Virus record (IMG/VR): IMGVR_UViG_3300042502_001136
Span: 1-64,000 of that record
Strand: one strand, 5' to 3'
Length of the DNA stretch: 64,000 bases
From: a virus
Part shown: one piece after another, positions 3,001 through 63,080 of the stretch
Layout of the letters: every line of letters starts with the position of its first letter
How positions within the stretch are numbered: the first letter of the stretch is position 1
Program-made: the position numbers and the translations under genes
Notes under the pieces: model-generated
The model's input: only the letters and a program-made list of their open reading frames with translations
The model's database searches: none
Told to the model about the DNA's origin: nothing

Positions 3001-6000
3001 AATTTTCAGCTTTAGTATAAGTTAATTGAACAAAATTATTAAGGTATGTTTCAAGTCCTGCATTAGTTAATATATTAACACCATAAAGTTTCTGTATTTC
3101 ATCTACTAATGGTGTTTTAGTTTTATTTAAAAATAATTCTATTACAGATGCAATACTATCAATATAATCTTCTCTTACTTTAGCACGTCTAACAGGTAAA
3201 GCTAATTTCTTTTTACCAAAAGGTATTACAACAACAGTTTTACCCTCATCAAAAGTTGTTCTATTAGCAGTAGCTACAACTTTTTGTGGAGCATAAAATA
3301 GTTTACCGGCTTTAGATATAGCTATTTGAACATCAGGCATATTAGTACTAACAGGATTAAGTTCATTACTGTTATCAACAATAGGAACTCCAGGACTTCT
3401 TTCTGTTATTTTTGCTACAATTGTTTTATTAGAAGTTAATATATCACTTCTTAATGCTCGTAAAGCTTCTTGATCTTGTTTAACAGCTTCAATAGTAGAA
3501 TCTAAATTACTTAAGTTTACCCATGATACATCATGTAAATATAAACCTTCTATTAATTCTCCATTAATCATAATACCAATAGGAGCATCATCAATAGTAC
3601 TATTTTCACGAGTTCTAACATCTCCATTTTCTTCTACAATACTATCTAATGGTACAAATGTTATTTCAGTATCAACATTTAAGAATTTTGGGTCTAAAAT
3701 TCTCTTATCAAAATTAGTATTAAGAAAATTATTTAAATCTTGTTTACCTACTCTTACAAAAATATTAGTTTTATTATCTGATTCAACTTTAAAAGTATCT
3801 TTATAAGATTTAGCTAAATATGCTAATAGATTAGAACCGGTTTCATTGTATCTTTTAAATACAAATCCATTACCTGTTACATCTACTCCATTTAATTTTG
3901 CCATATCTCTATAGATAGCGAGATTATCTTTAGTGATATCATCTACTTGAAAATTATATAAACCTTTAGGAATACTAAATATTGCAACTTTATTAAAACG
4001 ATTAACTAAAGTTTTATTAGCTTTAGTATCATTTAATACTTCTTCATAAGTACCTTCAATATTTTGTTTAGTTGCAACATTATAAATATTCTTAAAAGCA
4101 ACGAAATTTTTAATAAATGTTTCTTTACCGATAATGCCTTCTATAGCTTCAGAAACTTCTTTAATATCTCTAATGTTAATATTAAGTCCTTCAAGTTTAC
4201 GTAAAATATCAGTTAAAGCTTGTGCTTGTTTTAATACTTCATTAAAATCAACATTATTATTAGGATTAAAATCCATTGTAGGATTTTCATCTTTAATATC
4301 AGCTAAATTACCAAAGAAATCATTAACAGATTGACTTAAATCAAGATTTTTTTGATTAATAGCATTAAGTTCAGCTTTAAGTTGATTTTCAATATCTACT
4401 AATGTTTTATTAGTAATGTCTATGCTATCTCCCAATAGAGGATAGCTCTGTTTCATCATAACTGAACCTTGTGCAAAACTTACTCTAAAAGCAGTAATAC
4501 TAGTAAGTAAATCTTTAACATTAATATTAGGATTTTCAACAGCTTGTTTAATACTATTTAAAGTACTATCTAAATCTGCTTCACCAAAAACAGGAAAATC
4601 AATACTTCTTACTGCTCCCGTATTATACTTTTTATCTACTGTTGCAGTTGGCACATTATCAGGTTGTACTACTGGTGCAGGTTTAGGAGTAGGAGTATTA
4701 ACAGGAGTAGCTTTAGTATCAACTACAACAGGGTCAACTGCAACTACCGGAGCCACAACAACATCTTCTATTGGGGAAACGGCTTTTTTATCAATACTTT
4801 TCTTTAAAGCATTAATATCTTTTCTATCTGCTGATTTTTTAGCAATAGTTTTCTGTAATTTTTCTTGCTCTTTTTTAGCTTCTTTATTTTTAGCAATAGC
4901 ATCTTTAATAAAACCTTGATATTCTTTACTAGTAATATTATCAAAATGTAATTGAATATTACTATTAGTATTTTGTAAAATATCTAATGCTAATACTAAT
5001 TCTTTAAATTTTCTATAAGTAGCAGTTTGTCTGAATCTAGGCTTAACTTTATTAATACTTTCTCTAGTTAATTCACCATTAACTAAATAACTATCACCAG
5101 GAGCAAATTCAGGTTTATATTTAAATCTTTCATTAGCTTCTTGTATTACAGCTAATGCTTCTTCTTTTCTTTGTTTAACTAGTTTTTTAATATCTTCTAA
5201 TTCTATAGAAGTTCCATAAACTTGGTCGCTATTAAGATATGCTTTACTTTCAATGAATTTCTTTTCAAGAGTTTCAATTGTTTTAATAGCTTCTTTAGCT
5301 CTAGTTTTATAGTAATTATTAGTACCTTTATCTTGTCTATTATAAATACCTTTTTCTTCTGCTTCTTCTTCTGATAATTCTTCAAAACTTTTGTATAATT
5401 CAATTAAACTATCAGTAGTACCTAATTCAAAGTTTTTAGTAGCTTGATGATATAACAATCTATTAGTTAAATCTTCTACTCTAACTTGGTCTTTAGCTTC
5501 TTGTGCTGTAGCTAATTCATTATATAATTCTGTTTCTTCTTGAGCAGTATAAAATACATTAGTAAAATCATTAACTTTATTAAGTTTACTACGTTTTTGA
5601 TTTTCTGCTATTTGTACCTGCTGTTGCGTATACCTTTTTTGTCTAATACTATTATCACTAATATAAGATTTGTCGTTCCCGACCTTTTTTAAGGCGATTT
5701 CCCGTGCTTTCGCTTGGCTTTCCTCACTAGACATACCTTGACTTTTAAACGTTTGATACGCATCAGAAAAAGCCTGTCTATACTCAATATTTTTGTTAAT
5801 TGGTAGGTACTTTCCGGCTTTGGTTAAAGCTGTTTGTCCTGCACCACCAATAAAGCCTAATATTCCTGCTTCTATACCTTCATCAGTAGCAATATCAGTT
5901 AAAGCATCTTTAAATGTGTAATTATCAGCTAATGCTCGTTTTTGTGCAATTAAATTTATTTCTTCTTCTAAAAATTCTTGTCCGCCTTCTAATCCAATTT

Positions 6001-7084
6001 GTCTAAGAGATTTTAATTTATTTGGAGCATCTATTAATACTCTAGTATTTATTGGAGTTTTAAGAAACATATTAGCACTAGTAATATTTAAAAGAATATT
6101 AAGTCTATTAAAATTAATAGCACTAGCAGCAGCTTCTGAAGCTTTTTGTTTAGCCATACTTGCTATTTCGGCATCACTTACATCTTTATATTTCTCATCT
6201 GCTCTTAGCATTTTTACATTAGTATTATAAGACTCTTCGAAAGTATCAAGACCTACTCCAAATGCTTCTGCATTATTTAACAAAAATGCATTAGATAAAG
6301 TAGTAGCAGTTCTTACACCTTGTTGAGCTCTAGCACCTAATTGAGAAGTTTTACCTAAAGTTTTAATATACTTAGCTAGTTGAGCACCTTTAGAAAAAGT
6401 ACCACCTGCTATACCTCCGGTAACATAACCCGCACCAACAAATCCTCCTATACTTGTTAATAGGCTTTCTCCTGTTTCAAACCAATAAGCAGGGTCTCCA
6501 ATATCTAATGATTTACCTTCATTTTCTCTATAGATAGGCATAGCATCTTTAGCACCTTGTTGAAACTCTCTTATTTTTTCTAATAAATGATTACTTACTT
6601 GACTTTCATTTTCGTAGTAACTATTTACATCAAAACTACCAATAATATTGGCAGCTACTTCAGGTAGTACATTTACTGCAAGTCTACCCATAGCATTTCT
6701 AGCTTGTGCCCAATTACTTTGGGCTCTAGCACGTTCTCCAAAAGCCGCTTCTTTACTACTGATAAAATCAGTATTAAGATATCCGGCTAATTCATCTAAA
6801 TTTACACCTGTATTTCTTTCTGCTCCTGTTACAACACGATTAGTAGTAAACTTAGACATTCCTTCAGAAGTTCTACGTTTAATTTCTACTGGTTGTTCTC
6901 CTAAAGTTTGATTGTCAGTAGGAGTTTCGGTTTTAACAGTATTCCCTTTTTGTTTTTTAGGGTCTGTTTGATTTGTATTATCAGCAGAAAACCCCAAACT
7001 ATTGTTTGAGGTTAAATCTGCCATAATATCTGCAAGTGAATCCGGTGTTTTATTAACATTAGAATCATTAAAGTTATTATTCAT
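1..7084 (-). CDS. giant virion cargo polyprotein, probable virion RNA polymerase (continues beyond left edge)
   Basis: ATG at 7084 (MNNNFNDSNVNKTPD...). The same frame was open wherever I spot-checked it (both ends, 5640-5820); the ORF is absent from the track, consistent with no in-window stop. LFIGDPALFYK...GKRL near 140-230 resembles crAss-like vRNAP sequence, and the position after muzzle and cargo genes fits. The catalytic Asp motif was not seen. Confidence 0.8.
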   Translation of the reverse strand, partial: MNNNFNDSNVNKTPDSLADIMADLTSNNSLGFSADNTNQTDPKKQKGNTVKTETPTDNQTLGEQPVEIKRRTSEGMSKFTTNRVVTGAERNTGVNLDELAGYLNTDFISSKEAAFGERARAQSNWAQARNAMGRLAVNVLPEVAANIIGSFDVNSYYENESQVSNHLLEKIREFQQGAKDAMPIYRENEGKSLDIGDPAYWFETGESLLTSIGGFVGAGYVTGGIAGGTFSKGAQLAKYIKTLGKTSQLGARAQQGVRTATTLSNAFLLNNAEAFGVGLDTFEESYNTNVKMLRADEKYKDVSDAEIASMAKQKASEAAASAINFNRLNILLNITSANMFLKTPINTRVLIDAPNKLKSLRQIGLEGGQEFLEEEINLIAQKRALADNYTFKDALTDIATDEGIEAGILGFIGGAGQTALTKAGKYLPINKNIEYRQAFSDAYQTFKSQGMSSEESQAKAREIALKKVGNDKSYISDNSIRQKRYTQQQVQIAENQKRSKLNKVNDFTNVFYTAQEETELYNELATAQEAKDQVRVEDLTNRLLYHQATKNFELGTTDSLIELYKSFEELSEEEAEEKGIYNRQDKGTNNYYKTRAKEAIKTIETLEKKFIESKAYLNSDQVYGTSIELEDIKKLVKQRKEEALAVIQEANERFKYKPEFAPGDSYLVNGELTRESINKVKPRFRQTATYRKFKELVLALDILQNTNSNIQLHFDNITSKEYQGFIKDAIAKNKEAKKEQEKLQKTIAKKSADRKDINALKKSIDKKAVSPIEDVVVAPVVAVDPVVVDTKATPVNTPTPKPAPVVQPDNVPTATVDKKYNTGAVRSIDFPVFGEADLDSTLNSIKQAVENPNINVKDLLTSITAFRVSFAQGSVMMKQSYPLLGDSIDITNKTLVDIENQLKAELNAINQKNLDLSQSVNDFFGNLADIKDENPTMDFNPNNNVDFNEVLKQAQALTDILRKLEGLNINIRDIKEVSEAIEGIIGKETFIKNFVAFKNIYNVATKQNIEGTYEEVLNDTKANKTLVNRFNKVAIFSIPKGLYNFQVDDITKDNLAIYRDMAKLNGVDVTGNGFVFKRYNETGSNLLAYLAKSYKDTFKVESDNKTNIFVRVGKQDLNNFLNTNFDKRILDPKFLNVDTEITFVPLDSIVEENGDVRTRENSTIDDAPIGIMINGELIEGLYLHDVSWVNLSNLDSTIEAVKQDQEALRALRSDILTSNKTIVAKITERSPGVPIVDNSNELNPVSTNMPDVQIAISKAGKLFYAPQKVVATANRTTFDEGKTVVVIPFGKKKLALPVRRAKVREDYIDSIASVIELFLNKTKTPLVDEIQKLYGVNILTNAGLETYLNNFVQLTYTKAENLTDFNNYLETVREGISLISVRNGIIYYGYGLNDKSNYIGSSKNYSKETLAQDLAHFREHLKNSYFNVDINKLGSKEVPFLISNNKLIKPYENYNDFAKDNLLTSYLSIDVDGKPIYTIQSRLNFAVTKAVENVGEEFAKKVNAEAKENEGVPTRTKGKDIKLSDGSIFNIDNIDFDANPNDSKLKSNNNTIADNNLDKNSHDYLLANSSIIKGVNVSTFNNFIESIASRIYSELLEERDTEGFKIDVEQQVKVTLNGLEGLKDAYLQAFNMGRDIDIDTINFQIDSIVANKSKIIKAVERRLSKKGISASENELNNNTVKDAEEDERNTWLDTALYTIDPRTSLTKEIKNFLEGIKEYNVVDVNGENQFYPKKSILNNDIIVPFDKVYISLNRLLTKSNTNPITLTYDKVIALLEEEVDGKPYYHDIINKLKDSEPHFKNAFVTAFSKHHTNHLYVSVNYDSTKKEYNFIPTLASAKNVTDLVLSEWQNNLKNKDIFITEGNKIKINSDNIKEFEALYNEIVADSTKVYKVKDWLEMVGIVIPPIVHSNLLNYGMYRDDQVYSLYQHFILSNGIFKNIKNTIVAFSNNNEEIEEDNDLDLSTMNLYDDSSFKDLAFVVSRYRDDLFNDNFKNGNGDTVYSYANNKYVVDRFINLKDDAVPLKYLLDVPYSASSTWLANLYQIDEDTNEVSINKHSLMYKYFKYYTADSIKYKNSKIGKVIDKLTPEQLEDFQLGLYYNRGLHANGLPIMKVLYPTMSDKSNVFILQVPRREYTFVNGVLPSETKLELAKILFYPEIDRINHFNANKGTFNNLEYEQGGGKFLSFPLLNDVKELWNEDGTLVEGVGKTAEFDAILIEYVTRYLSKLVSEKRALWQEYGIIKRSKDNKKSYIKVDKVYKAVKGDDLDNILKNYVINTTIANLNIQQLFIGDPALFYKTGKTSEEMGINTANTMGKRLGMDNGGKSPIISDKDETMNVLVIDDVKMTSTALSYLNSLFGVNSD
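4765..4779 (-). repeat. dispersed motif copy TTTCCCCAATAGAAG
   Basis: inside the giant ORF; inverted partner at 4428-4442. Confidence 0.7.
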
Positions 7085-10455: not shown

Positions 10456-12663
10456 TTAATTAAAAGGATTATTAGCTAGTCTATCTTTAAAAACATTTAC
10501 TCCAACATTAGCTCTACCAAAAACATCAGCATTTAGTTTATTTCTAAAATACTTTTTACCTTCAGCAGTAGATTTTAGATATTTATTGTATCTAGGGTCT
10601 ATTTTAGCCATTGCTTTAGCTCTTGCACCTGTAGGGTCATCTGATAATATTATTTCCATTAATTCTGCATCTCTTAATGTTTTATCTTTTCTTTCAAAAG
10701 TTTCAGTAATATCTCCACTCATATCAGCTAAGTTACTAGAAATTCTACTTTGAATATCATTAGCTCTAGTAAACTCCATTAAGCTATTAGAATTAAGAGT
10801 ATCAACATTTTTACTATTAATAGATTGTCTATTCATAATGTTTTGATTACGTAATCCTGTTTCTATATTCTCTTTTTGTCCTAATATATTATTAGTAACT
10901 TCTAAACCTCTTAATCTTGTACTAGCTACATTTGCTCTAGCTACATTACTATTAGATGTATTAGCATAGATATTATCTACCATTGCTCTTGTTTGTCCTT
11001 TTACTTCAGCTAATTGTGGATTAACATTGTAATTAGTATTAATTCTTTCAGCTTTAGTTAAAATAGGTTTAGGTAATTTAGGACTAAAAGCAGTTAAAGC
11101 TGCATTTCCTACATTATCAATTAATGTAGGAGCTAATTCTTTCATAAAATTAAAAGATTCTTCTTCTCCTATTGTTTCATCAGGAGAAGTTCCGTTTGCA
11201 TATTTTTTAACTTTACCTCCATAAGCAAGATTATCTAATTCATTTTGACCTACTACCATTTTAGCCATTTCTTGTTTTTGTGTTAAAACTTCTTCAGCCA
11301 TATTAAGTCCTGCTAATTGACGTTCAATAGTATTACGAGAAAGACTATCTTTAGTTCCTTCTAATTTTTTATCTAATTTATTTCTTTTAGCAGTTAACTG
11401 TTTCATACGTTTAGCAAAACTTACTCCTTTTTCATCAGTAAGTTGCTCACTATAAACCATATCAGTTCCATCCCCTTGTTCTACTAATACTTCTTCATCT
11501 TCTACTTCTGCAATAGGTTCTCCTTGTTGATATAAAGTGATACCGTAAGAATTATCAATTCTTTTTTCTGAATGTTTATTACCTTCAGCTACTGCAACAC
11601 CATCTCCAATTGGCTTAAGGTTTCCGCCTTTTGTTTGATATTCCCCAATAGAGGTTGTGTTCTGTTTATTAGGTAATTCACCACCACCTGCATAATAATC
11701 AACATAATTACCATCAGTATTATAATCAACTAGGTCTTGAGCATCACTAACAGACTTCTCTTTCCACATTTGATTTAATGCAGAGCTTCTAGCTTTAACA
11801 GCAGCATTTTTTTGCATAGCTCCTTGAATTAATCCCATTCCCATATTAACTCCTGCACCAATTATAGCAGGAGCAATATATCTTTTTTTACTATTTAATC
11901 TTGGTTTTTTCATAATGTTTATTGTATTTATTTTACCACCATTTTCATAAATAGGAGTAATTGTTCTTTTACTACCTTTATCAAGACTTATATTATCAAA
12001 ATCAGTTACTTCTTCTGTTCTTGTCCATCCTCCAAATTTACCTCCACCTTGTGTTTCAACTCTATAACTTTTAGGTATTCTAGCTATAGGAGTTAATTCA
12101 GTAGTTTGTATACTTAAATTAGAATTAAATGGTTTAATATCTAATGGTATTGTAGATATAGGAGTTTGTTTTACTCTTGGTACTGCTATTTCTATAAGTT
12201 GTGTTGGTTTTTTTTGAAAAGTTTCATTTAACACCATTCCCCTACCATTACTTTCTTTAACTTGTTTACCTGTAGTAGTATTTGGTTTTCTTGTATCTTT
12301 TACTATTACTTGTTGTTGTGGTTTTTTCCAAAAAGGTAAAGTAAAAATTAAATTATTCTTTATTCCTTGAGCAGAAGCATATATATTTGTTTTATGTATA
12401 GGTTTTATTTTATTAAATTTATTTTCAACTTGTTCATGATAAGCAATATCTTTAAAACTATTTCTTGTATTGTCATCCAATTTATGTAAAAGTTGTGATG
12501 GGGCTTCTCCTAACTTTCCATTTAAATAATCACCTACATATTTTTTATTTCTATTTCCATAATTATACAAATTTAAACTATCTTGGTAAGCTTTATATCT
12601 AGGGTCATTTTTATCAGAAACTACAATAGGTTTCTTTTTTTTATTTTTATTAGGTTGTAACAT
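10456..12663 (-). CDS. virion cargo/ejection protein
   Basis: 735 aa; Gly-rich hydrophobic segment IAPAIIGAGVNMGMGLIQG, H...GI...AEVEDEEV segment, repeated YxxGG-like motifs; synteny. Confidence 0.6.
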   Translation of the reverse strand: MLQPNKNKKKKPIVVSDKNDPRYKAYQDSLNLYNYGNRNKKYVGDYLNGKLGEAPSQLLHKLDDNTRNSFKDIAYHEQVENKFNKIKPIHKTNIYASAQGIKNNLIFTLPFWKKPQQQVIVKDTRKPNTTTGKQVKESNGRGMVLNETFQKKPTQLIEIAVPRVKQTPISTIPLDIKPFNSNLSIQTTELTPIARIPKSYRVETQGGGKFGGWTRTEEVTDFDNISLDKGSKRTITPIYENGGKINTINIMKKPRLNSKKRYIAPAIIGAGVNMGMGLIQGAMQKNAAVKARSSALNQMWKEKSVSDAQDLVDYNTDGNYVDYYAGGGELPNKQNTTSIGEYQTKGGNLKPIGDGVAVAEGNKHSEKRIDNSYGITLYQQGEPIAEVEDEEVLVEQGDGTDMVYSEQLTDEKGVSFAKRMKQLTAKRNKLDKKLEGTKDSLSRNTIERQLAGLNMAEEVLTQKQEMAKMVVGQNELDNLAYGGKVKKYANGTSPDETIGEEESFNFMKELAPTLIDNVGNAALTAFSPKLPKPILTKAERINTNYNVNPQLAEVKGQTRAMVDNIYANTSNSNVARANVASTRLRGLEVTNNILGQKENIETGLRNQNIMNRQSINSKNVDTLNSNSLMEFTRANDIQSRISSNLADMSGDITETFERKDKTLRDAELMEIILSDDPTGARAKAMAKIDPRYNKYLKSTAEGKKYFRNKLNADVFGRANVGVNVFKDRLANNPFN
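11641..11654 (+). repeat. dispersed motif copy TTCCCCAATAGAGG
   Basis: intragenic; next copy, inverted, at 12837-12851. Confidence 0.7.
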
Positions 12664-12666
12664 ATC

Positions 12667-15600
12667 TTATCTTTTATCAATTAAACTTTTAACATTAACT
12701 TGATTAATATATACATCATTAGTATTACTATTACTCATAATAAGCCGTATTACTACAAATGTACCAATAAATTTTGATTTATCAAAGAAACTTTTGTTAA
12801 TATTTATATTACTTTCAATTACTGAACCAACACTATCTACTATTGGGGAAGATGCAGAAACTACAACATCTCTAAATTCATTGAAATTCCAAACTCCTTT
12901 AACATTTCTACAATTATTAAATTGTTCTAATGTAATAACACCGCTACATTGATAGTCAGTATATAACATTATTTTATCAATAGTACTATTATATAAAGTA
13001 GCTCCAGCAATAGTCTTAACAACAGATTCCCATGTAACTGCTTTATATAATTTACTTAAATCTAATCTACTATTAAATATTAAATCTACATAACTTTCAT
13101 AATTTGTTTTATAATAATATCCTCTATTAACAGATTTTTGATTATGAGCATAATTACTAAAATTAAAAGTAATAGCAAATTCAGAAATAGTATTATTATA
13201 AAAACTAAATAAACCTAATTGATTAAAATAATAAGCATTAGGATAATAATCATGTTCACATACCCAAACTTTATCATATAATTGAAAAGATAAAGTTTTA
13301 CTTAAATTATTAAAGTAACGCTCATCATTATATATTAGTCTTTTCGGATAAGGTATTTCAATAGCAGGATAATCAAAAGAAAAACCAATAACATTATTAC
13401 TAGTAGAAACTAAAACAGTACTATTAAAAATAGTTAATACAAAATAAGGAGTATCAATTCCATTATTACTAATAGTTAAATAATAGTCTTCATCTTCTAT
13501 TAAATTAGCTTCACTTAATTTTAAATTTATATAAGTTATATAATTATCAAATGTAGCAAAACGATTAATACCAATTAAAACATGATTAGGGTCTGTTACT
13601 ACATTTACAAATATACAAGTAACATTAAATAATTGAACATTATTAATATCTCTATAATTTAAAAAAGTAGTATTACCATTTAAAGGTTGACTATTTACAT
13701 TAACTTGAATACCATTAACTAAACTTGTTTTACTATAATAAAATTCTCCATCAAATGTATAAGTAAAAGGTCCTACTTCTTCATCATTTTCTACTAATTC
13801 AGGAAACTTAAATTCATATAATTTTTTAGTAAATAATAATCTATTATACTTTTCATCATATCCTACTAAATGTCCTATACTATTAAAAGGATTATCAACT
13901 CTTTGATGTTTACCAAATCTATCTTCTTTATAAAAACCTTTTGTATCCCAATTAGCTTCAAACCAATTAATAACATTTGCTTTAGTTAATTCAGTAAATC
14001 CTTCACCTATTAAAAATATTTTACCTTTAATTTGGTCTACAACTACATAACCATCAGGACAAACAATACAAGCAAATTGATTAGTACAACCAATATAACC
14101 TTTATTAGTATTAAATTTAATTTCATCAGGTGTTCTATCAAAAATATCTCCTTCTCCTAAATAAGTAGTACTACCATCTGTATTAAGTTTATCTTTTAAA
14201 GTTGCTACAAATAAACTATATTTTTGTTGAATAAATAATTGTTTATTAGTACCTCTTACAGCTACAACCTCTCCTCTGTCATTAAGCATTTCATAATAAT
14301 CATTAGCTCTAAAAGTTCTTAATGCATTAGTTTGTAAATTTTCATTAGGTATTTTAATAGTTCTAGCAATTCTAAAAGGAAAATAATCAATAAAAGGAAT
14401 ACTACTATTATTAGAAACAGCAACAATTAAATCATTAAGACTTCTTTGAATATCTTTATTAAAGAAATCCATAGTATAATTAAAAGTATTTACTAAATCA
14501 GATTGAGAACCACCACCACTTAATATATATTCAACAGTATAATCTCTATCTTTAGTAATAAATACATTTGAATTATTATTAATTCCCCATATACCTTTAA
14601 TAAATAAATCATTAAACCTCATTCTACCAAATATAACAGTACCAAAAGCAATAGATATAGGAAAACGTATAATGTTATTTGTAAATACATCACCATTATC
14701 ATATAACTTTTTATCACTATTAGTTAAAGGAACTCTACCCAAACTAATAAATTCAGTAGGATTAAATCCGACATAAACATTAGTAAGAAGATTTAAAATA
14801 GTAGCACTTAATGTTATACTATATGCAGCATCTTCAAAAGCTGCACCATAATCAACTAATGTATCGTATAATCTAGTATCAGAATTAAATACTTCTATGG
14901 ATGGAATTACTACATTTTCACTTATAACTTCTGTTAATAAAGGATTCCATTTAGTATCCGGTAAATCAGTATATCCACCTGTTTCTGTTTGTAAAGAATT
15001 TTTAGCTTTAAGTAAAATAGTTTCTTCTACAAACATTGTTTTAGCTTCAATATTATTTCCGGGAAGGTATTCAATATCTTTAATTACTGCATATTTTTGT
15101 TCATCACTTATTTTAAAAAATCTATTTGGGTCAAAGTATATATTAAAACTACCTCTATCTTGTGGGGTTAACTCAGGGTCACTAGGATAAATAACTCTAC
15201 TATGATAAACACCATAATTAGCTTTAATTAATTTAGAATTTATTTCTGTTTTATAATTATATAAAGTTGAACTCCATATTTTACTAAAACCATGTTGTAA
15301 ATATCTATATCTTAAAGTATTACCATCAGTTACAGGGTCATCAAATGTAGCAGTAATGAAATCACGATTAGTACCATCTATATTCATTGCAACAGTTATA
15401 GCATGATGAATAAAAGGAATATCTTCTACTAGTCTATCTCCAACTTTTCTTTTTACAATTAGTATTCTATATGCTTGTAATTTTTCTTTTACTTCAGTAG
15501 GAAACATAGCATCAAAATTAGGAATATTAACTCCAAATTTAGGAACTTTACCATAAAATTTATCAGCAGCAGTACCATATTCTTCTCCTGTATTTTTATG

Positions 15601-17041: not shown

Positions 17042-17716
17042 TTAATGTATATAATTAAGAGCTCTTAAATCACCTAATATACTATTATTCCACATCTCAG
17101 TAAATTCCTGATATTCTTCTAAGTTCATCCAATTCACACTATTTCCAGCACGAGGATAATGTTTTTCCCATAATTGATAAGCACTATTATAATCAAGTAT
17201 AGGATGTTTATATCCTGTTAATGCTAATCTCATTATACAATAATATTCAAGTGCTTGAAGAAAATCAGCATCAGAAGGTACTAAAGGAAACCCTTCTTCA
17301 TCACAAGGTAAGCCTTTATAAACAAGTATTACTATTCCTTTTTCAAAAGTTACTTCAATAAATCTTCCATTTGTAGTACCATAAGCTGTATCATGAATAG
17401 GAGCTTTAATTGCCTTTCCTATCAATGGGTTATTTCTAATAATTAATCTACATAAATTAGTAGCATTAGATTCATCATAAAGAGTTTTACCTACCCAAAA
17501 ACTATGAGCATGTTCAATATCACAAGGTAATTGTCCTTTATGATTTATAATAGGAATACTAGCATCTTTATTAATATAGTAATCAGGAATTCCTATTATA
17601 CTAATAGCATCTTCTATCATTTGTGGAAATAAATGACTATAAGAAGTGCTATCAAGTCCATAAATAGTAAGGAGTCTACCTATAAAATTCTTAGTTGTAA
17701 TAAATTTAGTTATCAT
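17042..17716 (-). CDS. tail ring (tubular) protein
   Basis: 224 aa; LPCD...YKGLPCDEEGFPLVP...ALEYY pattern; directly upstream of the muzzle gene. Confidence 0.7.
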   Translation of the reverse strand: MITKFITTKNFIGRLLTIYGLDSTSYSHLFPQMIEDAISIIGIPDYYINKDASIPIINHKGQLPCDIEHAHSFWVGKTLYDESNATNLCRLIIRNNPLIGKAIKAPIHDTAYGTTNGRFIEVTFEKGIVILVYKGLPCDEEGFPLVPSDADFLQALEYYCIMRLALTGYKHPILDYNSAYQLWEKHYPRAGNSVNWMNLEEYQEFTEMWNNSILGDLRALNYIH

Positions 17717-18473
17717 TAGTTACAAGATTAAAACGATTATTAAATTGTTCATCAGTTAAACTTTTCTTATATTCTATTAATTTAGCTACTGAACCATTTT
17801 GTCCTCTAAAAGGAATAAAAACATAGTTTCTAACATTACTTATAAGAGCAGCAGGAAGTAAATTATATTTCCAATCAAACCATAAATCTCTACCTTTATA
17901 ATACTCTAACCATTTTACACCTTTATAAGACTCTCCTTGTGCTTCAAATTCAGCTTTATAATAAGGAATATTTCCGGCTTCTATTATTGCTTCTCTATTT
18001 TTTAAACTTTTACCCCAATCTATTTTCTTTTTATTATTTCTATAAGAAACAATATTAATAGTTCCTATAAAATATTCAGTAAAAGTATATCCTTTTTCAA
18101 TAAGAGCTTTTACTATTAATATATTAAGAGTTCTTAATGTAAAAATAAAGATATTAAGAGTAAGTTTTTGTTTAGTTAATTCCTTAATTTTTAATTCTTT
18201 ATTTTTAATAATACAAACATTACTATAATGTGTTTTAAGTTTTATGTTTGCTAGTTCTTCAATAGTATTAATAGGAGTTTTTATTGTTTGTTCTTCCCCC
18301 AATAGAAGTTGTTGTTTGTTCACAACGTTAGCTAATTTGCCTTTATTACAATCAATAAAAGTTTCTATATCTTTATTAAGTTTTTTATACTTATTAATTT
18401 CTTTTTGAAGACTTTCAATTTCAAGATTAACTTTTACGTTATTTAATTTGTATATTGTTTCAGCTGTTATCAT
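17706..18473 (-). CDS. IHF/HU-like protein of the crAss-like structural block
   Basis: 255 aa; FIGTINI...KKIDWGKS...FDW...YVFIP; located between ring genes. Confidence 0.55.
   Translation of the reverse strand: MITAETIYKLNNVKVNLEIESLQKEINKYKKLNKDIETFIDCNKGKLANVVNKQQLLLGEEQTIKTPINTIEELANIKLKTHYSNVCIIKNKELKIKELTKQKLTLNIFIFTLRTLNILIVKALIEKGYTFTEYFIGTINIVSYRNNKKKIDWGKSLKNREAIIEAGNIPYYKAEFEAQGESYKGVKWLEYYKGRDLWFDWKYNLLPAALISNVRNYVFIPFRGQNGSVAKLIEYKKSLTDEQFNNRFNLVTNDN
18293..18308 (+). repeat. dispersed motif copy CTTCCCCCAATAGAAG
   Basis: intragenic; weaker inverted copy at 18566-18578. Confidence 0.7.
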
Positions 18474-19182
18474 CTGGTTTTATATTTACTTGTTTACCAT
18501 CTTTAGGTTCTAATCGATATTCACCACTAATAATACCTGCATGAAGTTGCATTAACATATCAACACCTATTGGGAAAATAGCATCGTCAGTAAAACCATC
18601 AGTAATAGAACATACTTTATATGCTTCTCTTGGGTCTTCAAATACTCCACGTATCATAACATTACATAATTTTAATGTAGCATTAATATCACATAAATTA
18701 AGATTATTAATGATATATAAATATCCATTAATAACAGTATAATAAATAGTATTAAGTTGATATTTCATACCTACTAAATAAGGAAATCTATCTAAAGTAG
18801 TAAAAACAAAACTTTTAGTACCTTCAATACTACCAATATAAGAATAAGGTGCTATATGAGCAGTTTTAGTTCTAATTGGTAAAGGTATTCTTTTTCTACT
18901 TTTAAGAATTTTATATTCATCTTGTTCTGCAACATTAGGACAAATAGCAGAAATACAAGAAAAATCAGCACCAAATTCAGTTAAAAGATTAACTTGTTCA
19001 AATTGAACAGTAATAGTTTGAGCAAAATGAATATCAGATAGATAATTTCTATCAATATCATCTCTTAAAAATTTAGCTCTCCAATTAATAAGAGTATTTT
19101 TAATACTCTCACGTAATGTTTGATTAAATTGGTCACCTAGTTTATAAGCAATATTTTCTGCTTCTTTGTTTAATGTTGTCAT
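18460..19182 (-). CDS. tail ring protein
   Basis: 240 aa; MTTLN..AENI, NGYLYI, RGVFEDP, DAIFPI motifs. Confidence 0.7.
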   Translation of the reverse strand: MTTLNKEAENIAYKLGDQFNQTLRESIKNTLINWRAKFLRDDIDRNYLSDIHFAQTITVQFEQVNLLTEFGADFSCISAICPNVAEQDEYKILKSRKRIPLPIRTKTAHIAPYSYIGSIEGTKSFVFTTLDRFPYLVGMKYQLNTIYYTVINGYLYIINNLNLCDINATLKLCNVMIRGVFEDPREAYKVCSITDGFTDDAIFPIGVDMLMQLHAGIISGEYRLEPKDGKQVNIKPDDNS

Positions 19183-39082: not shown

Positions 39083-39766
39083 TTAATCTTCTCTATTTCC
39101 TACTTCACGTCCACCTACTGCTAATTTTAATTCTCCTCCTGCTTCTGCATATGCTGCGGCTAAATCATTTTTAACTTTAGTCATAGCAGGAAGTTCTTTA
39201 ATAATTTTACTAGCATCAAGTTGTAGTTTTTGTATTTGTGAATACAATGCAATAGCTTTATCAATATTAACTAATTTTTCAGTTTCACTAAAAACATTAG
39301 TACCTTCTGCTGTAAGTTGTTTCATTGTTTCTTTACACATACGTTTCAATTCACTTATATCATTTTGCATATCATGTATATCTTCAGCAGTATTATAAAG
39401 ATTCTTTTCTGCAGCAAGATAAGCATTAGCAGTAGAATCTAATTTAAGATGTATCTCATAATATAATAAAGCATTAACAACAGCTTCATCAGGAATCCAA
39501 TTTTGTGGTAGGGTTGCGTGTATCTTAGCTTTACGTCTTTTTTCAGTAAGAGAAAGATTGTAATATACACTTCTAGGGTCTGCTATAAGATATATGTATA
39601 ATAACTCACGCTTAGCCATTGACTTCTTTCTACCATCAGCGTCACCAACAGAACCTTTATCCTTTTCTAATATTACTTTAAAAGCAGGATGTTCTCTAAC
39701 TTCAGGTTTATTTATTTCAATAAGCCCTTGTTCATTAAGTATAAATATTGAATTATTTTGACTCAT
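39083..39766 (-). CDS. conserved crAss-like helical protein (terminase small subunit candidate)
   Basis: likely start MSQNN at 39766; ELLYIY...DPRS...WIPD; C-terminal GG; upstream of terminase. Confidence 0.5.
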   Translation of the reverse strand: MSQNNSIFILNEQGLIEINKPEVREHPAFKVILEKDKGSVGDADGRKKSMAKRELLYIYLIADPRSVYYNLSLTEKRRKAKIHATLPQNWIPDEAVVNALLYYEIHLKLDSTANAYLAAEKNLYNTAEDIHDMQNDISELKRMCKETMKQLTAEGTNVFSETEKLVNIDKAIALYSQIQKLQLDASKIIKELPAMTKVKNDLAAAYAEAGGELKLAVGGREVGNRED

Positions 39767-40205
39767 TACTTCTGATTCTATGCATTGGTCTAAATTGTAG
39801 TTTATTATATGTAGAAGCATCAGGAGCTTCAAGTACTTGTTCAGCATCTAATCCAACAGGTTTATTAGTACTTTTTAATATAGCTTGTTTTTCTTTACCT
39901 TTTTGAATAATATATTCTTTTCGTAAAGCAACTTCATCTAGTTCAGGGTGAATTTGTTTTAGAGCAGTTAAATTTTTAACAAATTTAGTACCTTCTATTG
40001 CAACTTCTTTTCTTTTAACATTAACAAATTTACCAAAACCTGTAAAGAAAACATTAAAACCTTTAAGAACACCATATTTAAAACCTTCTACTTGAGCATT
40101 TAAAACATTTAATAGTTGTTCATCTGATAATTCTATATTATATTTCTCCATAACTATCTTTCTAGTTTCAGAGAATATACCTAATAAAGTATCATCTATT
40201 TTCAT
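39753..40205 (-). CDS. HU/IHF-like DNA-binding protein
   Basis: helical N-terminus, then GFNVFFTGFGKFVNVKRK. Confidence 0.55.
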   Translation of the reverse strand: MKIDDTLLGIFSETRKIVMEKYNIELSDEQLLNVLNAQVEGFKYGVLKGFNVFFTGFGKFVNVKRKEVAIEGTKFVKNLTALKQIHPELDEVALRKEYIIQKGKEKQAILKSTNKPVGLDAEQVLEAPDASTYNKLQFRPMHRIRSNESK

Positions 40206-40206: not shown

Positions 40207-40773
40207 CTATTTATTATTACCTTTATCTGTTAATATAAGTGGTGGATTTTTTTCATCTATATAGGCTTTAACTTGGTCAACTACGCCTACTATTGGTTCT
40301 GCTCTATTATTAATAATAGCAGCTTCTCTTATAGCTTCTTCTACAGTAATATCTTCAGGAGTTACTACTGGTTTACTAATACTATTAATATAAATAGCAA
40401 AGCTAGTATTAATATAACTAGCAATACCATTAAGAAAGAAATCTTTATATGCTTGTAGTTCGCATTTTGTTGCATTTTCCCCAATAGAAGGAGGATAGTA
40501 GTTATTTACTAATTCAATTCGTTTACCAATAATACTTTCACTTTTATCAGTAAGTACTAATATAAAAGCATAATAATTAGTAATAGGTTTAACTCCATCA
40601 AGAGTAATAACTTTATCACCTTTAACAAATTCAATAGTATATGAATATTTACGTTTATTAGCATAAGCTTGATTAGTAAGAAAAGCTAATATAGATTTAG
40701 CTTGTAGACGATAATTAGTAAGTTCTTGAGGAACAACTTTATTACCTTTGTCAGTATTATTAGATTCTATCAT
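40207..40773 (-). CDS. hypothetical protein, first gene of the leftward block
   Basis: 188 aa ORF. Confidence 0.7.
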   Translation of the reverse strand: MIESNNTDKGNKVVPQELTNYRLQAKSILAFLTNQAYANKRKYSYTIEFVKGDKVITLDGVKPITNYYAFILVLTDKSESIIGKRIELVNNYYPPSIGENATKCELQAYKDFFLNGIASYINTSFAIYINSISKPVVTPEDITVEEAIREAAIINNRAEPIVGVVDQVKAYIDEKNPPLILTDKGNNK

Positions 40774-40912
40774 CTTTATAATCTTTAATAGTTATTAATA
40801 TTAGTTCATAGTCAGTAGCAAATATACAAATACTTTTTTAATATACCTATTTTAAAGCGAAAATTCGTATAATATTTTTCATTCTTACAAAACCATCTTC
40901 TATTGGGGAAAA
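40475..40912. repeat. inverted pair of dispersed motif copies
   Basis: TTTTCCCCAATAGAAG at 40475-40490 and its exact reverse complement at 40897-40912. Confidence 0.75.
40819..40826 (-). promoter_or_regulatory. Bacteroidota-type -7 promoter element for the leftward block
   Basis: TATATTTG (TAnnTTTG) about 45 nt upstream of the ATG at 40773; no clear -33 TTTG. Confidence 0.45.
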
Positions 40913-42330: not shown

Positions 42331-42416
42331 GTTGACCTCTGTCTGTGCGAGTAATCGAAGAATTAATACAAATCAAATCAATACAAATAATCGAAGTAAA
42401 ATTAATAATCAAAACA

Positions 42417-46592: not shown

Positions 46593-46594
46593 AT

Positions 46595-46771: not shown

Positions 46772-46785
46772 ATAAATAACTAATA

Positions 46786-46989: not shown

Positions 46990-46994
46990 GATTG

Positions 46995-47365: not shown

Positions 47366-47462
47366 TTACATTTTTACCCCTTTGTAGTACTATAATATTA
47401 CTTTAGATATAAAGTTCAATACAAGTGTTTAAAATAAGCCAAGAATTTTACTAATGATGATA

Positions 47463-47576
47463 TTTACCCCAATAGAAGATAGTGTTCGTTTGAGGTAATT
47501 GAAATATATCATTATATTAGTGATAATATTAATGCTCATATTACAGACAAAACAAACATTCCCTCTATTGGGAAAA
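47463..47576. repeat. inverted pair of dispersed motif copies (intergenic)
   Basis: TTTACCCCAATAGAAG at 47463 and CCTCTATTGGGAAAA at 47562. Confidence 0.7.
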
Positions 47577-51122: not shown

Positions 51123-53450
51123 ATGATATACTTTGTAACAGAAAGAAAAGAATATTATAGAGAACGTATTAATAAAGATATATTTTCTGATATTATTATT
51201 CTAGATAGTATCGAAGGAAAAGAGCTTTATTATAAATTACTAGGTAAACGAAAAATACTAGCATTTGATATTGAAGCTAATGGATTGGATGCTCATACAC
51301 TTAGTCCCATACTTTATGGTATTGGTGTTAAAGGTATTCAATTTATGTTTGATTGGACTGTTGATATTAAAGATATTTTTGAACACATATTAAAGTATAA
51401 TATTATATTACTAGGACACAATTTAAAGTATGATATAAAGGTAATAGCAGTAAATTATAATATACTGTTTACAAAACTTTATGATACTATGATTGCAGAC
51501 CAAAGAATATGGATGAAAACTGGATATAGATTTAGTTATGCTGAATTAGTACAAAGATACTTAAATAAAACAGTTCTTAAATCTACTAGAAATGAATTTA
51601 TTGATGCAGACCCTTCTACATTTAAAATAACTGCTTCTCATTTATATTATCTTAAAGGAGATTTAGTTGATTTATTTGATATTAGAAAAATACAACAAAA
51701 ACACATTAAGAAATATAATATTCCTTTTCTTATTTATGGTATAGAATTTCCATTAATCTCAGTTATAGCAGAAGCAGAACTTACTGGTTTTGAATTTAAC
51801 ATAGATTTATGGAGAGAACGTATTAAAAAAGATAAAGAAGAATTATATAAACTTAAATTAGCTTTAGATGCTGAAGTTAAAAAGTTAAAAGAGTTTGTAA
51901 GTTTATTTGGAGATAATGGAGATATTAGTATTAATACTCTATTAGGCGGACAAAAATATAATAAAGAACGCAAACCTAGTGAATTAGAAGATTTTGTTAA
52001 TACTGATGATACTGTTAATCAACCTGATTTATTTGGTAACAAAATGACTACTAGAGCTTTTACAGGACTAAAAAAGAAGATTGATATTAATGTAGGAAAT
52101 ATTAATTATAAATCTAAAAAAGATATAGTTTTTATATTTGCTGCATTAAAAGAACCTCTTATTACTCCTTTAGAAACTATTGCCGTTCCACAACTAGATA
52201 AAAAAGGTAAATTAATTGGTAGCGTTGATAATTTTACTATTAAAGCTGATTTATTACAAAAGTTTATATTGTTAAAGCCTAATTCTAAGATGATACCATT
52301 TATAGAATTAATTATAAAACATAGTAAACTTGAAAAAGCTTTAAGTACTTATGGTGAAAATTTTATTAATAAAATTAATCCTAAGACTGGTAAAATTCAT
52401 ACTATCTTTAGACAATGTGATGCAGATACAGGTAGATATCAATCCGGAGGAGGAGATAATGAACCTGATAAATATAATGCACAAAACATTCCTAGAGATA
52501 ATGCTTATAGAAATTGTTTTACTGTTGATACAAGTAAATATAGTTTAGTTACTGCTGATTATGAAGGTGCAGAATTAGTAGTTATGGCATCTCATGCTCA
52601 AGACTTTAAACTAATAGAGATATCTAAACAAGATATGCATAGCTATATGGCAACTAAATGTTGGAAAAATATTTACTATTATAGAGCTAAAAGATTATTT
52701 GATTATTTTAGTGGTAATATTGCAGGAAAAACAACAGAATTAATAAATGAATATAAACAATTAAAAGACTTATCACAAAACTATTTAGTTACTAAAGCTA
52801 TAAAATATGTTCGTGATGCTTTTAAACCTATGACTTTTGGAGTTATTTATGGTATGTATCCTAAAAAAGCAGGAGCAACCTTAAATATACCATCAGAAGA
52901 AGGTAAAATTGTTATTCAAACTATTGAAGCTGAAATTCCTGATACTATTAAAATGGTTAAACAAGCTTCTGCTTTTGCTAAAGCTAATGGTTATGTTATT
53001 TTAGAATCTAGAACTAATGCACGTGCATGGTTTCCTAATCTTATTAAACTTCTTAAAAAAGAAATTAATGAAAAGGATAACTTTTATGATATATCTAGTG
53101 AATTATCGGCTGCTCGTAATATTAGAATTCAAGGTACTCAAGCTACATTTCTTAAAGAAGCCGCAGTAGTATTACGTAAATATTTTAAAAAACATAAAAT
53201 AGATGCTATTCAATTATCTTGGGTACATGATGAATTTATTATTCAAATACCTCTTCATTTAGATGGTCAATCAGATGAATGGAAAGAATGGAGTAAGTCA
53301 AATTCACTCAAACACCCTCTATCTATTGGGGAAACTGTTGAAAGTCTAGCAGATGTTATTAAAATTGTATTACAAGAAGTTGCTAATAAATATTTAGAAA
53401 ATATTACTATTAGAGTTGATTTACAAGTAAAACCTTATTGGTTTAAATAA
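51123..53450 (+). CDS. polA: DNA polymerase family A with 3'-5' exonuclease domain
   Basis: FDIEANG, GHNLKYD, TGRYQS, NAQNIP, ADYEGAEL, KPMTFGVIYG, IQGT, VHDE. Confidence 0.93.
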   Translation: MIYFVTERKEYYRERINKDIFSDIIILDSIEGKELYYKLLGKRKILAFDIEANGLDAHTLSPILYGIGVKGIQFMFDWTVDIKDIFEHILKYNIILLGHNLKYDIKVIAVNYNILFTKLYDTMIADQRIWMKTGYRFSYAELVQRYLNKTVLKSTRNEFIDADPSTFKITASHLYYLKGDLVDLFDIRKIQQKHIKKYNIPFLIYGIEFPLISVIAEAELTGFEFNIDLWRERIKKDKEELYKLKLALDAEVKKLKEFVSLFGDNGDISINTLLGGQKYNKERKPSELEDFVNTDDTVNQPDLFGNKMTTRAFTGLKKKIDINVGNINYKSKKDIVFIFAALKEPLITPLETIAVPQLDKKGKLIGSVDNFTIKADLLQKFILLKPNSKMIPFIELIIKHSKLEKALSTYGENFINKINPKTGKIHTIFRQCDADTGRYQSGGGDNEPDKYNAQNIPRDNAYRNCFTVDTSKYSLVTADYEGAELVVMASHAQDFKLIEISKQDMHSYMATKCWKNIYYYRAKRLFDYFSGNIAGKTTELINEYKQLKDLSQNYLVTKAIKYVRDAFKPMTFGVIYGMYPKKAGATLNIPSEEGKIVIQTIEAEIPDTIKMVKQASAFAKANGYVILESRTNARAWFPNLIKLLKKEINEKDNFYDISSELSAARNIRIQGTQATFLKEAAVVLRKYFKKHKIDAIQLSWVHDEFIIQIPLHLDGQSDEWKEWSKSNSLKHPLSIGETVESLADVIKIVLQEVANKYLENITIRVDLQVKPYWFK

Positions 53451-58804: not shown

Positions 58805-59518
58805 ATGGATTTGAATTTAAGTATTAATAAAGATACTAGAGGAAGTGCTAATAATCCTATTCCTGCTCCTCGTTTGTTAGCTCTTGCTACAACCATATTT
58901 CCTTATAAATATGAATTTCCTGTTGCTCATTTAGTTAATGTTTCTTTTGACCCTAAGAAAGAAGTAAAACGTAATGATGTAACAGAAAATGTTCCTGCTC
59001 TTATTTTCTTATTTAAAGATAAGGATAAAAGACAATTTACTCATATTGAGTTCCCATTAGACCCAACAGATGATAAAATTAAGAAAAAACAAGATGCTTT
59101 ATTATCTCGTATTAAACATATTTGGGATGAAACTATTGGAGCTGATAAACTTCCTGCCGGTGTATTAGAAGGTAAATCTTTTGCTGAATTTTATGAAAAT
59201 GTAGCAAAAGGATTTAATGCAATTACTTATACTAAAGATGATAAAACATATAAAACTTACTCTGCTAATGCTTTATATATTAAATTATCTTATTATAATG
59301 CTAATTTGCAACTTCCTCAATACCCTAATTTCATACAACCTGCTACTAGTGGGGGAAATCAAAAAGTATGTGAATTGAGAATTAATCCTACTTATGACTC
59401 TGTTGAGCCTAAAGCTAAAGCTAAAGCAGGAGGAAATCAAAGTGGACATAATAATGAATTTGGTGGAGGAGAAAGTTTTGGTGGTAATTTCTCTGAAGAT
59501 TTACCTGATATTGAATAA
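58805..59518 (+). CDS. SSB-like replication protein
   Basis: 237 aa; Gly-rich acidic tail ending EDLPDIE; upstream of primase. Confidence 0.5.
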   Translation: MDLNLSINKDTRGSANNPIPAPRLLALATTIFPYKYEFPVAHLVNVSFDPKKEVKRNDVTENVPALIFLFKDKDKRQFTHIEFPLDPTDDKIKKKQDALLSRIKHIWDETIGADKLPAGVLEGKSFAEFYENVAKGFNAITYTKDDKTYKTYSANALYIKLSYYNANLQLPQYPNFIQPATSGGNQKVCELRINPTYDSVEPKAKAKAGGNQSGHNNEFGGGESFGGNFSEDLPDIE

Positions 59519-61776: not shown

Positions 61777-61787
61777 AACCATAATTA

Positions 61788-63080
61788 ATGGAAAAGCTAT
61801 ATAAAAAAGATAGTAAAGGTAAAATACTTGAATGGTCAGCTGAATATGAACACACTTCAAATGGTGTTGATATTCATCTATATTCAGGTGAAATAAACGG
61901 AAAAATTACAAAGACTGTAAGAGCCGGAATTAAAGGAAAAAACATAGGAAAATCTAATGAAACTTCTCCTTTAACCCAAGCAGTTAATGAAATTGAAAGT
62001 TTATATAAAAGAAAAAAAGATTTAGGATATAAATCTCTTATAGATTTAAATTATAATTTTGGTAATGGTTTTGATACTGTTATGTCTATAAGTGATTTTC
62101 TTAATCAAACACTAACAAAAGATACTACTGATGCTGCTGGTAATCTTAAACCAATGAAAGCACAACAATATTATCGTAGTAAAAAAGATTGGGTTGATAA
62201 TCAAGGTAATATATGGAAAGATAGAAAATACTTTTATTTACTTAACCCATATGAAAGAAAAGAAAGAGGAGCAATAATTATAGGTTTTCCTTGTCTTATT
62301 CAACCTAAAATTAATGGTGTAAGATGCACTATTAGTTTAGATGAAAATAATAATGTTCAGATTCTTAGTAAAGAGGGTAAACGTTATAATCTTCCCCATA
62401 TAGAGGAAGTGTTCGTTCAGTACAAATCAATATTTACCGTATATAAAGAAGATGAACAAGAAGAAATTTTCTTTGATGGTGAATTATATATTCATGGTGA
62501 AAAATTACAAGTAATAAGTAGTGCAGTTAAAGCACCAAATTTAGATACAAGTAGAGTTAAATTTGTTTGTTTTGATTTAGGTACAACATTATTTAGTAAT
62601 TTAAAAAGAATACAATTAATGAAACAGTTAATAACTCAATTAACTTCTCATATAATTGATGCTTCAGTAGAATATTTAGCTACATATCGTGTTGGTTCTG
62701 ATGCAATTGTACAAAGTATGACTGATAAGTTTATTGAACAAGGTTATGAAGGTTCAATATTAAGAGAAGAATTTGGTGTATATGCTTTTGGTAAAAGACC
62801 TATGTCAATGGTTAAACTTAAAAGAGTTATGGATACTGAATTTTTAATTGTTGATATTATACCACAAGAAAAAGATAATAATCTAGGATTATATGTATGT
62901 AGAACTTCTGAAGGTAAAGAATTTAATGTTACTCCTACTGGTAATAATGAATTCAAAAGTTTAATATTATTTCAAAAACATCTTTATATAGGTAAAATGT
63001 TAACTTGTAAATTTTATGAATATACAGAAGCAGGAATACCTTTTCATGTATTAGATAATATTGTAAGAGATTATGAATAA
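61788..63080 (+). CDS. ATP-dependent DNA ligase
   Basis: QPKINGVRC, FFDGELY, FD, GYEGSILR, KLK; C-terminal OB fold. Confidence 0.92.
   Translation: MEKLYKKDSKGKILEWSAEYEHTSNGVDIHLYSGEINGKITKTVRAGIKGKNIGKSNETSPLTQAVNEIESLYKRKKDLGYKSLIDLNYNFGNGFDTVMSISDFLNQTLTKDTTDAAGNLKPMKAQQYYRSKKDWVDNQGNIWKDRKYFYLLNPYERKERGAIIIGFPCLIQPKINGVRCTISLDENNNVQILSKEGKRYNLPHIEEVFVQYKSIFTVYKEDEQEEIFFDGELYIHGEKLQVISSAVKAPNLDTSRVKFVCFDLGTTLFSNLKRIQLMKQLITQLTSHIIDASVEYLATYRVGSDAIVQSMTDKFIEQGYEGSILREEFGVYAFGKRPMSMVKLKRVMDTEFLIVDIIPQEKDNNLGLYVCRTSEGKEFNVTPTGNNEFKSLILFQKHLYIGKMLTCKFYEYTEAGIPFHVLDNIVRDYE

Follow-up and report, generated by a model that had tools for sequence, protein, structure and literature searches.

Why should a single asymmetric word recur on both strands throughout a phage genome, mostly hidden inside genes, and what might read it? 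We addressed this question for the first 64,000 nucleotides of IMG/VR virus record IMGVR_UViG_3300042502_001136 (the window), a stretch in which the original prediction had noticed about 20 dispersed copies of a motif with a GT-rich tail. The phage genome is 83,238 bp long, with 127-bp direct terminal repeats and 27% G+C, and the window represents its bases 1-64000. Judged by its gene content and gene order, this is a crAss-like phage. We find that the copies are very probably a selected recognition element, arranged as a separate, evenly spaced series on each strand and rewritten from one phage lineage to the next.

The copies conform to the consensus TTTCCCCAATAGAAGATAGTGTTyGTT, which covers ~27 positions, carries ~30 bits and can also be rendered as TTTCCCCAATAGAaGatgg.ttTgtt. 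The exact core, CCCCAATAG, had been reported at ten places in the window, and all ten were present against 0.15 expected, a count reached in 0 of 100 shuffles; the whole 83,238-bp genome holds 14. A 27-column matrix was built from the copies, and those scoring at least 15 bits were taken as strong. Scanning the genome with this matrix gave 23 strong copies, 18 of them in the window (Table 1), plus one weak copy at 18552, while Markov-shuffled controls gave 0.9 matches at 10 bits or more. Eight of the ten near variants listed in the original prediction scored between 16.7 and 35.5 bits. The other two did not reach this level, the one at 18566(-) corresponding to the weak 5-bit copy at 18552 and the one at 23184(+) being left uncounted. 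The sequence at 23175-23211, TTTCCCCATTAGGGAAA, approaches the core in a palindrome-like manner, scoring 10 bits on either strand, and was not counted as a copy.

The enrichment survives when the encoded proteins are held constant. In codon-preserving shuffles, in which amino acids and codon usage are fixed, 14 observed exact cores compare with 3.2 after shuffling, three of which are intergenic copies that the shuffle leaves untouched, and 23 matrix matches compare with 7.6 (maximum 12). Most copies (19 of 23) are intragenic, and the suspicion that they draw on rare codons proved right: CCC makes up 2.5% of the proline codons of the phage and GGG 3.2% of its glycine codons, and of the 44 GGG codons that the genome contains, 11 (one in four) fall within motif copies. 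The copies had also been described as being read in different frames and strands. They do lie both sense and antisense to genes, but each orientation mostly keeps one frame, nearly all sense copies being read as S/P-P-I-E-D and most antisense copies as x-I/L-G-E.

Related phages allowed the same sites to be followed across lineages. The nearest complete relative (G001, 81,848 bp) is collinear with this phage (G000), with portal and TerL proteins that are 43% and 55% identical. Its own word, cTTGCCCRTAGaaGAGAGtTTatTCG, is present in 19-22 evenly spaced copies that form opposite-strand pairs, with a coefficient of variation (CV) of 0.34 for the gaps between clusters. The metagenome contig L177, at 56% protein identity, carries TTTCCCCATAGnnGATArTGTTGG. 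The core thus has lineage dialects: TTCCCCAATAG in G000, TTTCCCCATAG in L177, cTTGCCCRTAG in G001, G005 and G006, and TTGCCCnTAA in further contigs of the G001 clade (G003, G004 and G007). Five to seven of the G000 sites are at the same place in relatives. Those at 11640, 12825 and 72393 occupy the same codons in both G001 and G003, and the 53522 copy and the intergenic 47.5-kb pair have counterparts in G001 by synteny.

The site at 12825 is the clearest case. The codons there are TCT TCC CCA ATA GTA GAT AGT GTT (SSPIVDSV) in G000, AAT TTC CCC ATA GTT GAT AGT GTT (NFPIVDSV) in L177 and GAC TTG CCC ATA GTC GAT AAA TAC (DLPIVDKY) in G001. Because each lineage matches its own genome-wide word, the protein has been altered in step with the DNA word. 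Relatives that keep the amino acids and lose the nucleotides would have pointed to the protein; here, the nucleotides of the local dialect are kept even at a cost in amino acids. At sites that relatives lack, protein alignments run through without gaps, so the copies arose by point substitution and not by insertion. Site positions turn over, while their density (one per ~3.5-3.6 kb) and spacing stay. Collectively, the codon shuffles, the homologous codons in relatives and the use of rare codons uphold the proposal that the constraint acts on the DNA and not on the protein.

The arrangement along the genome is equally ordered. The 12 plus-strand copies have a mean gap of ~6.9 kb and a gap CV of 0.30 (P=4e-5), and the 11 strong minus-strand copies have a mean gap of 7.6 kb and a gap CV of 0.34 (P=3e-4). 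The weak copy at 18552 fills the sole long gap of the minus-strand series; with it, that series has 12 copies, a mean gap of ~6.9 kb and a gap CV of 0.17 (P<1e-5). No gap exceeds 9.7 kb. Neighbours within 1.3 kb of each other lie on opposite strands in eight of eight cases here and in 26 of 27 over five genomes. The plus and minus series run almost in register, which accounts for the inverted pairs, whose members are 86-420 bp and sometimes 1-3 kb apart and whose interiors are mutually unrelated in sequence. The genome-wide clusters that had been claimed are thus upheld as a regularly spaced system, by the periodicity of each strand and by the opposite-strand pairing. The orientation of the word follows no rule relative to gene direction, with sense to antisense ratios of 14:9 in G000 and 9:9 in G001. 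A polarity toward the strand-switch region was considered and rejected, as unpaired copies in G000 and G001 point inconsistently.

Table 1. Copies of the word in the 64,000-nucleotide window.
Feature	Position	Strand	Score (bits)	Context
Motif copy ATCTCCCAATAGAGGATAGCTCTGTTT	4427..4453	+	26.7	Antisense in giant virion open reading frame 1..7084
Motif copy, exact core	4753..4779	-	38.0	Sense, read SPIED; 326 bp from 4427 partner
Motif copy, exact core	11640..11666	+		Same codons in G001 (47224-) and G003 (28410+)
Motif copy, exact core	12825..12851	-		Homologous codons hold the local dialect in G001, G003 and L177
Motif copy, exact core	18294..18320	+	34.6	
Weak shortened copy, TTTTCCCAATAG directly joined to GTGTTG	18552..18578	-	5	
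Motif copy, exact core	27887..27913	+		Homologous place in G001 and G003 has no site and no insertion
Motif copy, exact core	28148..28174	-		261 bp from 27887 partner
Motif copy, CCCCACTAG variant	32470..32496	+	35.5	
Motif copy, CCCCACTAG variant	34491..34517	-	16.7	In portal gene
Motif copy, CCCCTCTAG variant	38284..38310	+	17.5	No partner within 2 kb
Motif copy, exact core	40476..40502	+	26.7	In first gene of leftward block
Intergenic motif copy	40885..40911	-	34.4	Divergent strand-switch region; partner of 40476 copy
Intergenic motif copy, exact core	47464..47490	+	31.6	
Intergenic motif copy	47550..47576	-		Inverted pair with 47464 copy, 86-bp spacing
Motif copy, exact core	53308..53334	-		Antisense, 3' end of PolA gene
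Motif copy CCCCAATAA	53522..53548	+	29.7	Syntenic with G001 6313-
Motif copy, CCCCACTAG variant	59331..59357	-	27.3	
Motif copy, CCCCATATAG variant	62392..62418	+	28.4	In DNA ligase gene

We propose that the copies would act in cis as DNA recognition sites, with selection keeping the nucleotides themselves. Their reader would take one strand at a time and differ between phage lineages, and is most likely an enzyme that the phage itself encodes. Each copy would mark where this enzyme cuts (nicks) or starts a DNA strand. An asymmetric word that is recognised on a single strand would call for a separate series on each strand. The protein reader, its encoding by the phage and the event at the site are what we infer, and we offer the strand-specific nick or DNA start as a tentative best reading that is less likely than not to be right. 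It was chosen because nick motifs are the only published phage words that are conserved in a family, mostly intragenic and indifferent to gene structure, and because paired opposite-strand initiation sites offer a second analogy; the copies would behave like the nick motifs of T5 and of phages of the tf/Rembedalsseter type, or like the paired sites at which plasmid origins initiate single strands. That the word follows no rule of orientation with respect to genes is easier to reconcile with DNA processing than with mRNA promoters, and the phage is equipped with a primase, a DnaB-like helicase, PolA, ligase, a RecT-like protein, a superfamily 1 (SF1) helicase and an exonuclease, which we count in favour of this proposal.

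A reader encoded by the phage is favoured because the sampled host genomes are not enriched for the word and because the word has lineage dialects. At ~30 bits the word holds enough information to be missing from a host genome altogether. In 401 Bacteroidota genomes, a sample of the likely host phylum, the 10-mer core does not rise above background, reaching at most ~4 per Mb compared with ~130 per Mb in the phage. Among 185,579 prokaryote species, with one genome each, the 19-mer extended word gave chance matches only and no locus related to the phage. A word derived from the host was rejected on these two results. Among public viral contigs, the 14-mer turned up only in chance matches and in one fragment of this phage at 99% identity.

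Several observations weigh against nicking or strand initiation. No nickase was identified in the phage, in which the only homing-type nuclease is a GIY-YIG protein that is absent from G001, and G001 carries the signal; this endonuclease was rejected as the reader for the same reason. In relatives, the members of some pairs are separated by as little as 34-46 bp, where nicks on both strands would approximate a double-strand break. Within 250 bp of a gene start lie 65% of sites compared with 43% by chance (P=7e-5, although sites are not independent), which could mean a role in gene expression or simply that gene ends are tolerant of change. No step in GC or AT skew was found at sites or clusters, which gives no origin-like signature in the skew, and the GC content between partners is only marginally below that of the flanks (0.247 and 0.262, P=0.08, 21 pairs). 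The RNA and DNA runs were seen as assembled contigs, which cannot show the ends of molecules or transcripts; holes and depth differences in contigs were not used as evidence. Finally, known nick motifs are on one strand and unevenly spread (PMC11780129), whereas the word here is on both strands with even spacing.

This last difference deserves a fuller comparison, as the nick motifs are the nearest published class. In Rembedalsseter and 60 relatives the word WACTRTGAC is conserved in the family, mostly intragenic and marks nicks, with 13 of 13 motifs in Rembedalsseter on one strand (PMC11780129). The motifs of T5/BF23, tf and Rembedalsseter resemble the present word in being short, conserved in a family and kept across relatives of little nucleotide identity; they number ~10-14 per genome, and 88% lie in coding sequences (PMC11780129). 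They differ in occupying one strand and clustering toward one genome end (PMC11780129), as opposed to the 12 plus-strand and 11-12 minus-strand copies here, which are even and paired. Physical nicks stand behind the T5/tf/Rembedalsseter class, whereas the present word is known from its sequence.

Two other systems share its geometry. DNA uptake sequences (USS, uptake signal sequences, in Pasteurellaceae; DUS in Neisseriaceae) combine an asymmetric core with a tail, occur in both orientations and are spaced more evenly than random. They frequently form inverted pairs, prefer certain gene frames and have dialects that track the reader, all of which holds for the phage word. They belong, however, to bacterial chromosomes, which carry roughly one copy per kb, and are recognised by the competence machinery, compared with one copy per ~3.5 kb in a lytic phage, and the high word density expected of a competent host was found in none of the 401 sampled Bacteroidota genomes. 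Archaeal origin recognition boxes (ORB) and the ssiA/ssiB elements of RSF1010 are asymmetric opposite-strand elements of ~20-40 bp that face each other and are served by a dedicated initiator or primase. Replicons carry these at one to three loci flanking an unwinding region, unlike the 12-15 loci here with AT enrichment at P=0.08, and the pair spacing in this phage and its relatives, from 34 bp to >1 kb, is also unlike that of ORB and ssi elements.

Similar words occur in other crAss-like phages. Read on the other strand, the present word, CTTCTATTGGGGAA, resembles the CCTTTACGGGGGAA word confirmed in the gut phage crAss002, which has 14 YYYTACGGGG compared with 0 for the control. The two phages and G001 share a layout in which a pyrimidine tract is followed by TA(C/T) and a G-run (CtTCTATTGGGGaA in G000, cttCTAcGGGCAag in G001 and tCCTtTACGGGGGAA, the consensus, in crAss002), and in all three the word has roughly 15-30 copies, on both strands and mostly within genes. 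The word of this phage is longer than that of crAss002 (~27 nt, 30 bits), with an extra GT-rich tail and near-strict opposite-strand pairing; a simple 10-mer count in crAss002 (15 sites) gave no even spacing. The gut word belongs to Intestiviridae, whereas this phage represents a lake-water lineage whose TerL is only ~30% identical to any catalogued Crassvirales.

The genome of crAss001 (NC_049977.1, loci L187-L191) holds 27 copies of CTTCTGGAG, whose reverse complement is CTCCAGAAG, compared with 4.7 after codon-preserving shuffles. This word lies after a G-poor tract on both strands, sense and antisense and in several frames, is evenly spaced on each strand (P=0.001 and 0.04) and is unenriched in 61 Bacteroidales genomes. 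It is a possible crAss001 dialect of the same signal, the likeness residing in a short common CTTCT-GG layout. The Crevaviridae phage cr127_1 (NC_055886.1; L133, L134) has ten near-identical copies of a ~45-bp word, tACGAATTTCGGAACACCTCTCGCCCTTGTGGCCATTA, that was found in no other phage record. Seven of the ten are intergenic and three opposite-strand pairs are formed; seven of the ten point with genes, and five or six of these seven are close upstream of a gene, one of them 38 bp ahead of the primase gene. Its resemblance, to the tail of the present word, is weaker. No such dominant word was found in phi14:2, FPSV-S29 or ProJPt-Bp1. Purine-rich words in phi14:2 and FPSV-S29 were rejected, as they have no preceding C-run and by eye look like ordinary x-E-E-G coding words. 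It is conceivable, though doubtful, that a DNA-handling step is shared across Crassvirales, namely by Intestiviridae, crAss001-type Steigviridae, this freshwater lineage and perhaps Crevaviridae. On each strand, a phage enzyme would then recognise the word of its lineage at intervals of about 7 kb and so partition that strand, through nicks or strand starts, into roughly a dozen units; word and reader would have changed together since before the families split.

The copies could alternatively be a transcription signal. They would then serve as promoters or polar terminators for transcription machinery specific to the phage, for example its giant virion RNA polymerase or a phage factor that redirects the host polymerase, and copies on both strands would yield sense and antisense or primer transcripts. 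Some twenty copies of a 25-30-bp word with lineage versions are the classic signature of phage polymerase promoters, and T7-type promoters, with ~20 copies of ~25 bp in lineage-specific versions that presumably evolve along with their reader, match the present word in copy number, length and lineage versions. T7-type promoters are intergenic, however, and all point with genes, whereas the copies here are mostly intragenic and about half antisense, and so do not lie as promoters would, upstream of genes and pointing with them. The rightward block has six copies with the G-run end directed along the genes, and every one of them sits upstream of the next start codon, five at 47-236 bp and the sixth (40900) at 656 bp. 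The enrichment near gene starts and the gene-directed copies of cr127_1 are further points for a transcription signal, as is one RNA contig that begins 15 bp past the 47550-47576 copy. In the leftward block, however, sense copies are 270-1200 bp from the next start, RNA contigs span the copies at 53308 and 59331 unbroken, and contig depth rises after no copy and makes no step at the sites, although this evidence is weak. In phi14:2, early transcripts of the virion polymerase have no common upstream motif, and the middle promoters are host-type and sense-oriented (bioRxiv 10.1101/2020.03.07.982082), which also speaks against this reading. We consider a transcription signal unlikely. The word moreover does not match, at the right spacing, the -33/-7 pattern of Bacteroidota promoters.

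An architectural role, in which a DNA-bending or bridging protein of the phage (the HU/IHF idea, or packaged cargo) organises the chromosome for packaging, ejection or compaction, would be served by even spacing over the whole chromosome and by an asymmetric 27-bp word the size of a protein footprint. Two genes had been put forward as HU/IHF-like binders, but these labels are unsupported. The open reading frame (ORF) 17706..18473 had no match at all. ORF 39753..40205 is conserved in relatives and contains a GFGKF stretch like the HU/IHF signature; its Pfam match to the HU family is weak and below threshold (E 0.005, 17.4 bits against a cutoff of 22.4), it has no PHROG or PDB match, and its predicted model is all-helical and of low confidence, with a pLDDT (predicted local distance difference test) of 57. 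The word also does not match the Escherichia coli IHF consensus, WATCAANNNNTTR, and a bending protein needs neither strict opposite-strand pairing (26:1) nor a separate periodic series on each strand. An architectural role seems to us quite unlikely.

We regard as very unlikely a self-tag of the Chi type, which would switch off or redirect a helicase-nuclease that degrades untagged host DNA, or seed recombination, and for which every stretch would need a tag in each direction. Each locus does have both orientations, the copies are evenly spaced with gaps of no more than 9.7 kb, the sampled genomes of the host phylum are unenriched, and the overall pattern resembles DNA uptake sequences and Chi; the phage also has a RecD-like SF1 helicase that adjoins a DnaQ-type exonuclease, and a RecT-like annealing protein. 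Chi words, though, are 5-8 nt long and tied to a host enzyme, compared with ~27 nt here and no enrichment in the 401 Bacteroidota genomes, and this phage is not known to degrade host DNA.

The intergenic copies have particulars of their own. The 47464/47550 pair folds as a hairpin (z -2.97), and a second short element, TACRAGYSTTTAAAA, adjoins three of the four intergenic motif loci (40918-40932, 47420-47434, and genome positions 65007-65021 and 65097-65111), forming inverted arms around the motif copy at 65.0 kb. Hairpin arms around intergenic copies were rejected as a general feature, as folding is no better than in shuffles at 65.0 kb and 40.9 kb and only the 86-bp pair at 47.5 kb is significant. 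In two RNA runs, contigs match the phage rightward from 47565, inside the 47550-47576 copy, and leftward of this position hold 255 bases of unrelated sequence that is absent from the phage genome. This suggests that the genome of a variant strain is mosaic, with a junction precisely at the word.

That the word has no cellular function is highly improbable. It would then be selfish or a side effect of mutation: either a small mobile element, or what is left by template switching or by gene conversion that makes inverted repeats uniform. Inverted pairs and concerted change can be produced by template switching and by elements of the repetitive extragenic palindromic (REP) and miniature inverted-repeat transposable element (MITE) types (compare PMC8604942), and the variant-strain contigs break inside one copy, but the copies are not insertions (the alignments are ungapped), pair interiors have no shared similarity, several sites stay at the same codons across lineages of ~50% protein identity while the word changed everywhere in step, strict periodicity on each strand is unexpected from drift, and the word is kept even where this demands rare codons or altered amino acids. 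Mobile elements of the REP/BIME (bacterial interspersed mosaic element) and MITE kinds, whose copies are inserted, mostly outside genes, and resemble each other between their ends, were rejected on the first two of these points.

The surrounding genome is otherwise that of a crAss-like phage, found in many lake-water metagenomes and metatranscriptomes. Genes for the virion and packaging include portal, TerL, the major capsid gene and two giant virion ORFs, and SNF2 accompanies the DNA-handling genes named above. Gene direction is leftward from 40773, across the end of the genome, to 74254, and rightward from 41556 to 74196. No Rfam family or tRNA was found in the window. A gene for a GIY-YIG and NUMOD1 homing-type endonuclease lies at genome positions 68804-69664 (L135:4804-5664), in the block of genes for nucleotide metabolism; nothing corresponds to it at the syntenic position in G001, and it is probably a recent mobile insertion.

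Two regions stood out in the RNA contigs. At the strand switch, a 2-kb island at 41384-43516 has contig word depths of 53-122 in three lake metatranscriptomes, compared with roughly 2-35 for most early genes. It is flanked by a G-rich tract at 41040-41330, the stretch 40668-41334 is covered by no RNA contig, and the two ORFs inside the island had no Pfam match. The island may give rise to an abundant non-coding or very early transcript, comparable to the highly transcribed intergenic regions of phi14:2. The second region, 46585-47254, is intergenic and without a long ORF, has an RNA contig depth of 18-31, above its neighbours, and overlaps a nested-stem region of an earlier note on this DNA. 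One contig stops at 47247 and runs straight into sequencing adapter, and so marks the end of an RNA fragment.

The original prediction knew of no description of this motif, and our literature searches, which covered crAss promoters and transcription starts, Crassvirales repeats, nick motifs, Crevaviridae and the crAss001 word, found none either; the phi14:2 polymerase preprint and the epsilon-crAss paper describe no such word. The crAss-like phages are among the most abundant viruses, and their replication, packaging and DNA delivery are largely undescribed. A 30-bit word that keeps a fixed period on each strand through essential genes and is re-tuned in each lineage, with a change of dialect proven at the level of codons in homologous sites, implies a dedicated reader and an undescribed genome-wide process. 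The lake-water lineage extends this signal far outside the human gut, and the possible dialect in the cultured phage crAss001 would make its function open to laboratory tests. The words could also be used to mark lineages, and any recoding of these phages would need to preserve them.

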